Shown here piece by piece: positions 5,599-6,596 of a stretch of 64,000 bases of DNA; positions within the stretch are counted from its first letter, which is position 1; each line of letters starts with the position of its first letter. The notes beneath the pieces were generated by a model. The model saw only the letters and a program-made list of their open reading frames with translations, made no database searches and had not been told where the DNA came from. The DNA is from a virus. The position numbers were made by a program, and so were the translations under genes. The stretch lies in the IMG/VR virus record IMGVR_UViG_3300028394_000040. The stretch is one strand, 5' to 3'.

Positions 5599-5637
5599 GA
5601 TTAATTTTCTCCTATATGTCAAAGAACGGTGGTGTAG

Positions 5638-5709
5638 TGGACCCGGAGGATTACGATACCCCGGCCTAATGATTATGAGTCATTTGCTCTACCTCTGAGC
5701 TACAAGTCC
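5638..5709 (-). tRNA. tRNA with CAT anticodon (Met or Ile2)
   Basis: Acceptor GGACTTG/CGGGTCC, D-arm GCTC-AGAGGTA-GAGC, anticodon arm AATGA-CTCATAA-TCATT, A73; atypical T-arm; no encoded CCA. Confidence 0.85.
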
Positions 5710-5849
5710 ATAATTAAAGAGCTTTACTTTTTATCGTCGGTACTCTTTATGAAGGAGTGTCTAATTGGGCGCTCCTAACCCTGGTTCAGCACGTTTGTGT
5801 CGTCTAACCAGCCTCATCAGTTCTCGGCACAACCCTAGATGAGAGTCTG

Positions 5850-6007
5850 CTGTAGTAGATGGATTCGAACCACCAAGTGGACTTTAGGAACAAAACATGA
5901 TTGATGGTCAACCTCCACCGGGTGATATCCCGATTGTATTTTGTCTTTATCAGTTGTTCCACGTCCCCGAGACAGGAGGATGCGTAGGCCAGTTCCGCCA
6001 CACTACA
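5850..6007 (-). ncRNA. tRNA-Asp(GTC)-like RNA with 89-nt structured variable arm
   Basis: Acceptor TGTAGTG/TACTACA with G73; D-arm GCG..CGC; anticodon arm TCCTC-CTGTCTC-GGGGA; T-arm GGTGG-TTCGAAT-CCATC; insert at 5875-5963. Confidence 0.8.
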
Positions 6008-6014
6008 GTAAGTA

Positions 6015-6120
6015 TAGGAAAGTAGAAGATGGGTGCGTGGACATCTACTTTTACGATTGGCGTTTCTTACCGGTCGTATCCGCCCTTTCTACAGTTAAAG
6101 GATACATTCCAATCAACCTA
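6015..6120 (-). ncRNA. Candidate structured ncRNA
   Basis: Nested helices TAGG/CCTA, GATTGG/CCAATC, GTATCC/GGATAC, AAAGTAG/CTACTTT in a GC-enriched intergenic stretch. Confidence 0.5.
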
Positions 6121-6176
6121 ATAACACAAAAGGGGACTAGCCCCTATTATGTTACTAAAATTAAAAAAAGCAAAAA

Positions 6177-6596
6177 TTAAAAAACTATCTTTTCTAGTTT
6201 ATAAGTTAAACCAAGACCAGGAGTAAAGCTACTTCCTACTAAGTTTCCTATAACCCAAATCTTTAAACCTTCCGATTTCAATGGTGCATACCCTACCCAA
6301 ACATTAGGCTTTGTAACCCCTCCTTGTGGCTGTATACCTGCTCCTAGCATTAATCTTTCTCCTGAGAACATTCTTATTACGCCTAGTTTCATGCTGCTTC
6401 CGAAGCTACCAGTTTTAGTACTTATCATCGGATCTTCATTGTATAAAAACCCAGTGTAAATACCCCATCCTTTTTTTACGTACCCAGCTGTTAAATAGCC
6501 GTCACCGCTTTTATTAGTAGCGGAACCAAAGAATTCCTGTGCGTTAGCTACTAAGCTTGAGCATAGAATTAAAGCAATAAATAATAATTTTTTCAT
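6177..6596 (-). CDS. Secreted small beta-barrel (OMP-like) protein
   Basis: Signal peptide ending ANA-Q; amphipathic Gly/aromatic strands; C-terminal Phe. Confidence 0.55.
   Translation of the reverse strand: MKKLLFIALILCSSLVANAQEFFGSATNKSGDGYLTAGYVKKGWGIYTGFLYNEDPMISTKTGSFGSSMKLGVIRMFSGERLMLGAGIQPQGGVTKPNVWVGYAPLKSEGLKIWVIGNLVGSSFTPGLGLTYKLEKIVF

Follow-up and report, generated by a model that had tools for sequence, protein, structure and literature searches.

A family of tRNA-Asp-like RNAs with giant variable arms in phages and in bacteria of the order Cytophagales

A myovirus-type lake phage encodes a tRNA-Asp-like RNA of 158 nt that combines a full cloverleaf and the anticodon GUC with a folded variable region of 89 nt. 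The gene lies in a stretch of 64,000 nt from the IMG/VR virus record IMGVR_UViG_3300028394_000040; this whole stretch is hereafter called the window. We are practically certain that the RNA is real and that it belongs to a giant-armed family, and a chance resemblance or a pseudogene is ruled out by covariation and by the existence of 76 distinct homologues. The family occurs in phages and in most sampled genomes of one bacterial order, coexists with normal tRNA-Asp in several phages and hosts, and has an abnormal anticodon loop. We propose, with about an even chance of being right, that the RNA is processed and probably aminoacylated as a class II-type tRNA-like RNA and functions for the most part outside the ribosome, its arm providing a docking domain; the processing, the charging, the off-ribosome role and the partner are what we infer from these features.

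Structure and covariation of the giant-armed RNA

The window phage has a GC content of ~34% and carries every gene on the minus strand, including those for GroEL/ES, a split Pol A, gp32-like and RecA-like proteins, the tail sheath, the baseplate and fibres. A non-coding stretch of 554 bp is flanked by an ORF ending at 6177 and an ORF starting at 5622. Within it, both direct reading of the sequence and a structure-based scan yielded a full cloverleaf of 158 nt running from 6007 to 5850 on the minus strand, with the GTC anticodon, G73 and U37 that the preliminary description had reported. The scan also agreed that the variable region of 89 nt is inserted between positions 45 and 48. ARAGORN and Rfam 15 called only a tRNA-Met in the non-coding stretch and missed the giant-armed RNA. 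Membership in an already described Rfam family, which the preliminary description had left open, was not supported: sequences of three arm types gave no Rfam match at the gathering threshold or at E-values up to 10. A literature search found no published description of the family or of arms of this size. The single-sequence fold of the window RNA is not unusually stable (z = -0.7); therefore, the case for the RNA rests on comparison, namely the 76 distinct homologues and their strong covariation. The features of the region are as follows.

5850–6007, minus strand: whole giant-armed tRNA-Asp-like RNA gene, 158 nt; G73 is position 5850, CCA is not encoded; covered by covariance model R1 from 34 homologues
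6001–6007, minus strand: 5' strand of the acceptor stem, pairing with 5851–5857; the first pair is U1-A72
5982–5998, minus strand: D arm with a 3-bp stem and an 11-nt loop containing A14, G18 and G19; class II, tRNA-Leu type
5964–5980, minus strand: anticodon arm with a 5-bp stem and a 7-nt loop; GUC at 5971–5973, U37 at 5970, C38 at 5969
5958–5962, minus strand: 5' strand of P1, the 5-bp stem closing the arm, pairing with 5877–5881 (GUGGA/UCCAC)
5952–5953, minus strand: P1b, a 2-bp extension past a 4-nt bulge, pairing with 5882–5883
5937–5944, minus strand: 5' strand of P2, the long inner helix (8 bp in the window), pairing with 5890–5897
5919–5932, minus strand: P2a, an extra hairpin 5' of P4 that marks the host-like arm subtype
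5903–5915, minus strand: P4, the conserved core hairpin of 4 bp, with a UUGA loop, a bulged A and a GACCA motif
5858–5874, minus strand: T arm, 5 bp, with the canonical loop UUCGAAU
5637–5709, minus strand: neighbouring tRNA-Met(CAU), called by ARAGORN and Rfam

The acceptor stem of the window RNA comprises 7 bp, including one G-U pair, and is followed by G73; U8, A14, G18, G19 and A21 are all in place, and the anticodon loop reads CUGUCUC. The D arm is indeed class II-like, as first described, with a 3-bp stem and a Leu-type loop, and tRNA-Leu genes are the next-best matches of R1. From base to tip, the arm is composed of P1, the 4-nt bulge, P1b, an A-rich internal loop, P2 and P4. The closing stem and the 8-bp inner helix had been recognized correctly from the sequence, and the latter is backed by covariation; across the family, P2 comprises 8–12 bp, covaries strongly and always ends in a U-G pair followed by an A-U pair. 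The CGGG/CCCG hairpin of the preliminary description, which corresponds to P2a, is plausible: four phage relatives (L019, L027, L031 and L034) and several bacterial copies have a hairpin at the corresponding position, although with a different sequence. The UGG/CCA hairpin had been drawn in the wrong register, as the pairing conserved in the family is the 4-bp hairpin P4 (5915–5903) with its UUGA loop and bulged A.

Three arm subtypes can be distinguished by the tip. Type A has a palindromic hairpin and type B1 a single-stranded palindromic hexamer, and type B2, to which the window RNA belongs, has the extra hairpin P2a and lacks the palindrome. The palindromes are perfect and located 3' of the core hairpin in 69 of the 71 distinct type A and B1 sequences, where they occur in twelve versions (e.g. 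L020:6069-6210 and L004:5844-5993). The type B1 hexamers with their flanking A residues bear what we take to be a resemblance to the HIV-1 dimerisation loop.

The nearest viral record (G001) carries an identical copy of the RNA, and diverged copies in protein-anchored loci (73–76% identity) show compensatory changes in each of the tRNA stems. The family was identified on 57 viral contigs by two pattern scans of IMG/VR; in the second, in which the anticodon was left free, GUC was still present in every true match. The addition of a metagenome scan brought the collection to 76 distinct phage-type sequences. Among the tRNAs of the collected loci, the structure-based scan detected giant arms solely with GUC. 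Long class II-like arms also occur on three tRNAs with other non-class-II anticodons (Gly-UCC, 85 nt, L056:5861-5945; Ile-GAU, 97 nt, L056:6002-6098; and Asn-GUU, 86 nt, L061:3308-3393). A blastn search with the window region against 50,697 isolate-phage records, among them the Flavobacterium 'immuto' phages with which the GroEL gene is shared, gave only tRNA matches to the tRNA-Met part and no copy of the giant-armed RNA, in a collection from which records near the window's genome may be absent.

RNAalifold applied to 34 aligned sequences recovered both the cloverleaf and the arm helices. Over the full structure, standard pairs fill 97.7% of the pair cells, and 23 of the 43 pairs, including pairs in the arm, show double compensatory changes. 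When the pairing partner was slid by 1–3 columns, pairing amounted to only 39–54%, and none of 500 shuffles matched the observed values. The cloverleaf (7-bp acceptor, D, anticodon and 5-bp T stems) is backed by this covariation, with double compensatory changes in five of the seven acceptor pairs and covariation in three of the five anticodon pairs. In the arm, seven of the nine P2 pairs tested show double changes, the terminal U-G and A-U pairs being invariant, and both P1b pairs are swapped between arm types (19 versus 15 sequences) with zero broken cells. The outer pair of P4 covaries (GC in 23, UA in 5 and AU in 2), and the sole A-U change in its second pair is the window sequence itself. 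P1 is invariant across the phage copies and thus provides no covariation for or against it; in the bacterial copies, P1 has other sequences with pairing kept, as judged by eye. The invariance of P1 and of the core was partly imposed by the motif-fixing phage-type patterns used in the later scans, and the core hairpin was not fixed by the pattern in one of the IMG/VR scans. The P4 core was found in most bacterial copies as well. The view of a structured, tRNA-shaped RNA with an extra domain has held up, and the insert is conserved and structured in the relatives.

The invariant columns include U8, A14, G18, G19 and the T-loop sequence UUCRA, and the acceptor/T branch is 7/5 in all copies. G34, U35, C36, C38 and G73 are identical in all 76 phage copies, and G2-C71 is likewise invariant; position 10 is A or G, so G10 is not conserved. 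Position 37 is U in 71 phage copies and C in five, and hence always a pyrimidine, whereas 281 of 282 ordinary tRNAs from the same loci have a purine there. The suspicion that the loop is abnormal for a decoding tRNA was thus borne out. U33 is present in 278 of these control tRNAs and in 73 of the 76 phage copies, the other three having C33 or G33. Of the 73 phage copies with placed ends, 66 begin with the pair U1-A72 and seven with A1-U72, and none begins with G-C. The variable region spans 73–90 nt in the phage copies, compared with a norm of 4–5 nt in class I tRNAs and up to about 25 nt in class II tRNAs. Six copies (L033, L041, L107, L128, L047 and L120) have an extra hairpin of 10–17 nt in the D loop, before G18 and G19. 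We also considered self-masking, in which the GAC of the core hairpin would pair with the anticodon; the bacterial copies with CUC or UUC, and some of those with GUC, lack the core, and there is no covariation by which to judge the pairing, so that this idea is only remotely possible.

Bacterial copies, ordinary tRNA-Asp and neighbouring elements

When cellular genomes were searched with an exact pattern, which proved too specific to the phage copies, the only matches were two tiny contigs from a Flectobacillus MAG; finding the bacterial copies required a covariance model. Model R1 was built from the alignment of 34 homologues, with the window sequence among the seeds, and its E-values are rough owing to a short model calibration. 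With R1, a third, diverged copy was located on a larger contig of the Flectobacillus MAG that had yielded the two phage-like fragments. The host order, Cytophagales, was inferred solely from this MAG, and among the 121 genomes sampled from that order, 82 match R1 below an E-value of 1e-12, with matches of 98–186 nt that often form tandem arrays of 4–7. Of 151 genomes sampled evenly across the phylum, only 13 match. Therefore, the family is concentrated in that order rather than phylum-wide. Independent bacterial copies score 74–133 bits, and the weaker matches near 50 bits, which are the next-best genomic matches, are tRNA-Leu genes.

Many bacterial copies have the architecture of the window RNA, including P2a and the core hairpin, at low sequence identity to it. 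The window RNA is a member of this family, as it has the Leu-like body, the N-U-C-U/C-C loop, G73 and an arm made of a closing stem, a 2-bp extension, a long helix and the GACCA core hairpin. In bacteria, the anticodons CUC, UUC and AUC also occur, always with U37 and C38 (L173:1501-1806, L182, L179, L177 and L185:1501-1576), and one tandem pair of CUC and UUC copies is like an isoacceptor set. One bacterial member of 76 nt has a variable region of normal size in place of the long arm. Across the family, arm length ranges from 6 nt to about 100 nt, so that the arm cannot be the sole functional part, a point that weighs against our proposed reading. A divergent Lrp/AsnC regulator gene adjoins the RNA in 26 of 31 bacterial loci, and a SufBD gene comes next in 14 of them. 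Since most sampled genomes of the host order carry the family on the chromosome, within a conserved neighbourhood of its own, its primary role is cellular.

Ordinary tRNA-Asp(GUC), with 75 nt, A37 and G1-C72, is also present in the phages L026, L058 and L012 and in the complete phage genome G274. It likewise stands beside long copies in the bacterial genomes G070, G080, G071, G007 and G047, with seven tandem copies in G071. The giant-armed RNA is therefore a paralogue, and the idea that it generally represents the phage's only tRNA-Asp was rejected. No other tRNA-Asp was found in the phages L007, L061 and G272.

Four near-complete carrier phages were found to encode neither a class IIb (AspRS-type) synthetase core nor an Lrp/AsnC regulator, so the enzymes that act on the RNA must come from the host. 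Clustering of the phage neighbours revealed no clear partner among unknown proteins, PhoH, a PD-(D/E)XK nuclease and a phosphoesterase. Seven phage loci (L026, L058, L044, L042, L011, L038 and L014) also encode tmRNAs with complete tag peptides, a few kb away from the giant-armed RNA. The giant-armed RNA and tRNA-Met form a recurrent minimal pair (L004, L062, L065, L074 and L075). The tRNA-Met(CAU) of the window has G1-C72 and an anticodon stem without the G-C run and is therefore not an initiator; its T arm aligns to the Rfam model with lower confidence, and its T loop departs from the consensus.

Two further non-coding elements adjoin the RNA in the window. Directly upstream, at 6012–6125 on the minus strand, lies a conserved element of ~110 nt without an Rfam match, copies of which (78–85% identity) adjoin the giant-armed RNA or other tRNAs in about 20 phage loci. 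It terminates in a strongly conserved hairpin, and no more than one or two pairs covary. Between the RNA and tRNA-Met, at 5711–5849 on the minus strand, is a 137-nt stretch that is absent from the nearest relative G001. Its first ~111 nt are found 3' of the RNA with 86–91% identity in L065, L075, L105, L092, L099 and L129. This stretch folds as four hairpins and is not unusually stable (z = -0.9).

Candidate functions and competing explanations

Our proposed mechanism begins with a gene in a tRNA-type transcription unit, the product of which would be made like a tRNA, with cleavage by RNase P and 3' nucleases and addition of CCA. Such production is suggested by the failure to find a terminator-like site between the giant-armed RNA and tRNA-Met and by the fact that CCA is not encoded. 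The RNA would then fold into an L shape, with the arm projecting from the core, and would probably be charged by a host synthetase. The identity set of E. coli AspRS comprises G73, G34, U35, C36, C38, G2-C71 and G10, and SerRS reads the long arm, G73, G2-C71 and C11-G24. Because the nucleotides read by AspRS are kept in the phage copies, apart from position 10, and the features read by SerRS fit, the RNA is probably aminoacylated. The conserved nucleotides appear to fit synthetase recognition, and ordinary decoding appears to fit them less well. A mainly off-ribosome role is suggested by the constant pyrimidine 37, the occasional loss of U33 and the coexisting ordinary tRNA-Asp. The RNA may thus serve as a carrier, adaptor or sensor whose arm provides the docking surface for a partner. 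The phage copy, which in the window has the host-like arm type, may keep or take over the host function during infection.

A more specific version is that host AspRS or SerRS charges the RNA, which then serves off the ribosome as an aminoacyl carrier or an amino-acid sensor, with pyrimidine 37 keeping it away from translation and the arm docking it to a partner. As most phage tips are self-complementary, a symmetric dimer might form, which could, for instance, bind a dimeric class II synthetase or block the host partner. We put this version forward tentatively and think it rather less likely than not to be right in this form.

The main competing explanation is that the RNA is a true tRNA-Asp isoacceptor, able to decode despite its very large variable arm, and that the phage simply enlarges its tRNA set with it. 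We regard this as possible but somewhat doubtful. It would account for the retention of all L-shape elements, G73 and GUC and for the location within tRNA arrays, some of them large arrays without another tRNA-Asp; the absence of another tRNA-Asp in L007, L061 and G272 would fit a true decoder and, like the array location, counts against an off-ribosome role. The same can be said of the bacterial copies, which form multi-copy tandem arrays with NUC anticodon variants (CUC, UUC and AUC as well as GUC), among them the isoacceptor-like CUC and UUC pair. In addition, engineered tRNAs carrying aptamers in the arm are reported to be still able to translate (PMC7590224). However, a decoder would not be expected to have a pyrimidine at position 37 in every phage copy where the controls have a purine, or C33 or G33 in three copies. 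Canonical tRNA-Asp exists in hosts and phages, in up to seven tandem copies, the self-complementary tips of most phage copies suggest dimers, and some copies have the extra hairpin within the D loop. We favour a largely off-ribosome RNA over a decoder.

In the preliminary description, the RNA was proposed to be a decoy that takes no part in translation and titrates a host anticodon nuclease, TGT or AspRS, with a possible link to the deazaguanine pathway. The abnormal loop and the coexistence of normal tRNA-Asp would fit such a non-decoder, the nucleotides read by AspRS are invariant in the phage copies, and the palindromic tips of types A and B1, which differ from the sampled bacterial copies, could be a phage-specific twist. 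Nevertheless, we consider a decoy improbable: a decoy against the host's own defence leaves unexplained why most sampled genomes of the host order have the family in their chromosomes, with a conserved neighbourhood. Moreover, the UGU or GU motif targeted by TGT and colicin E5-type nucleases is also present in the tRNA-Asn, tRNA-His and tRNA-Tyr of these arrays, and they carry no giant arm, the arm being placed on the Asp-type tRNA alone. TGT needs U33, which three copies lack. No copy was matched by blastn in the isolate-phage collection, 'immuto' phages included, with the reservation given above on records near the window's genome. The link to the deazaguanine pathway likewise received no support, since the RNA is resident in the host and tRNA-Asn, His and Tyr are TGT substrates as well. 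Less probable still is a tRNA-Asp gene interrupted by an intron or a small mobile element that either is excised from the transcript or has simply inactivated the gene. In favour of this reading, the insertion point falls precisely between positions 45 and 48, a stem closes the insert, and the 137-bp indel beside the gene in the nearest relative indicates that small indels occur here. However, no repeat of the arm was found in the rest of the window or in related loci, it covaries as RNA together with the tRNA body, and its lengths are graded from 6 nt to about 100 nt. It matches no intron family or self-cleaving ribozyme in Rfam at E-values up to 10 and is not inserted in the anticodon loop. 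Its removal would leave a variable loop of ≤3 nt and the U37 loop unchanged.

Relation to known tRNAs and significance

The body of the RNA is closest to bacterial class II tRNAs, especially tRNA-Leu (RF00005), with which it shares the 7/5 branch, the 3-bp D stem and a Leu-like D loop, and which supplies the next-best model matches. One unpaired base precedes the variable stem and two follow it, which we take to be the spacing of E. coli tRNA-Leu. It differs from tRNA-Leu in the GUC anticodon, in G73 instead of A73 and in pyrimidine 37, and from class II tRNAs in general in its arm of 73–90 nt with several helices, against about 13–21 nt. With canonical tRNA-Asp(GUC), it has GUC, C38, G73 and G2-C71 in common, whereas the canonical tRNA-Asp of the same phages and hosts is a class I tRNA of 75 nt with G1-C72, A37 and an unrelated acceptor stem.

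In terms of concept, the closest relatives are the allo-tRNAs, which likewise combine a long variable arm and G73 with a non-serine anticodon (PMC5389517). GUC is among the predominant allo-tRNA anticodons, and these RNAs have been proposed as SerRS substrates, suppressors or regulatory RNAs (Mukai et al. 2017, PMC5389517). They have 8/4 or 9/3 branches, a tRNA-Sec-like D arm and G73 or U73 and occur in Clostridia, Proteobacteria and Acidobacteria (PMC5389517). In contrast, the giant-armed family has a 7/5 branch, and so does not share the branch type that marks allo-tRNAs, a Leu-like body and a far larger, multi-helix arm, and it occurs in Cytophagales and phages.

There are precedents for the off-ribosome use of charged tRNAs. 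The non-proteinogenic tRNA-Gly of staphylococci is such a charged tRNA. In both this system and the Mom system described next, however, the tRNAs are of normal size with normal anticodon loops, and for the giant-armed RNA no transferase partner was found. Phages employ charged tRNA off the ribosome as well, as the Mom protein of phage Mu uses Gly-tRNA (PMC13219725).

Few features in biology are as tightly constrained as the size and shape of tRNA. A conserved family of multi-copy genes whose folded variable arm measures 75–100 nt and whose anticodon loop departs from the purine-37 rule would represent a new branch of tRNA biology. Most of the genomes sampled from one bacterial order carry this family, and many lake phages have copied it. 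Because standard annotation tools miss the giant-armed genes, the tRNA counts of these phages and bacteria are incomplete. The family also raises a testable question, namely what use the cell and its viruses make of a tRNA body that has been kept chargeable and yet seems unfit for decoding.
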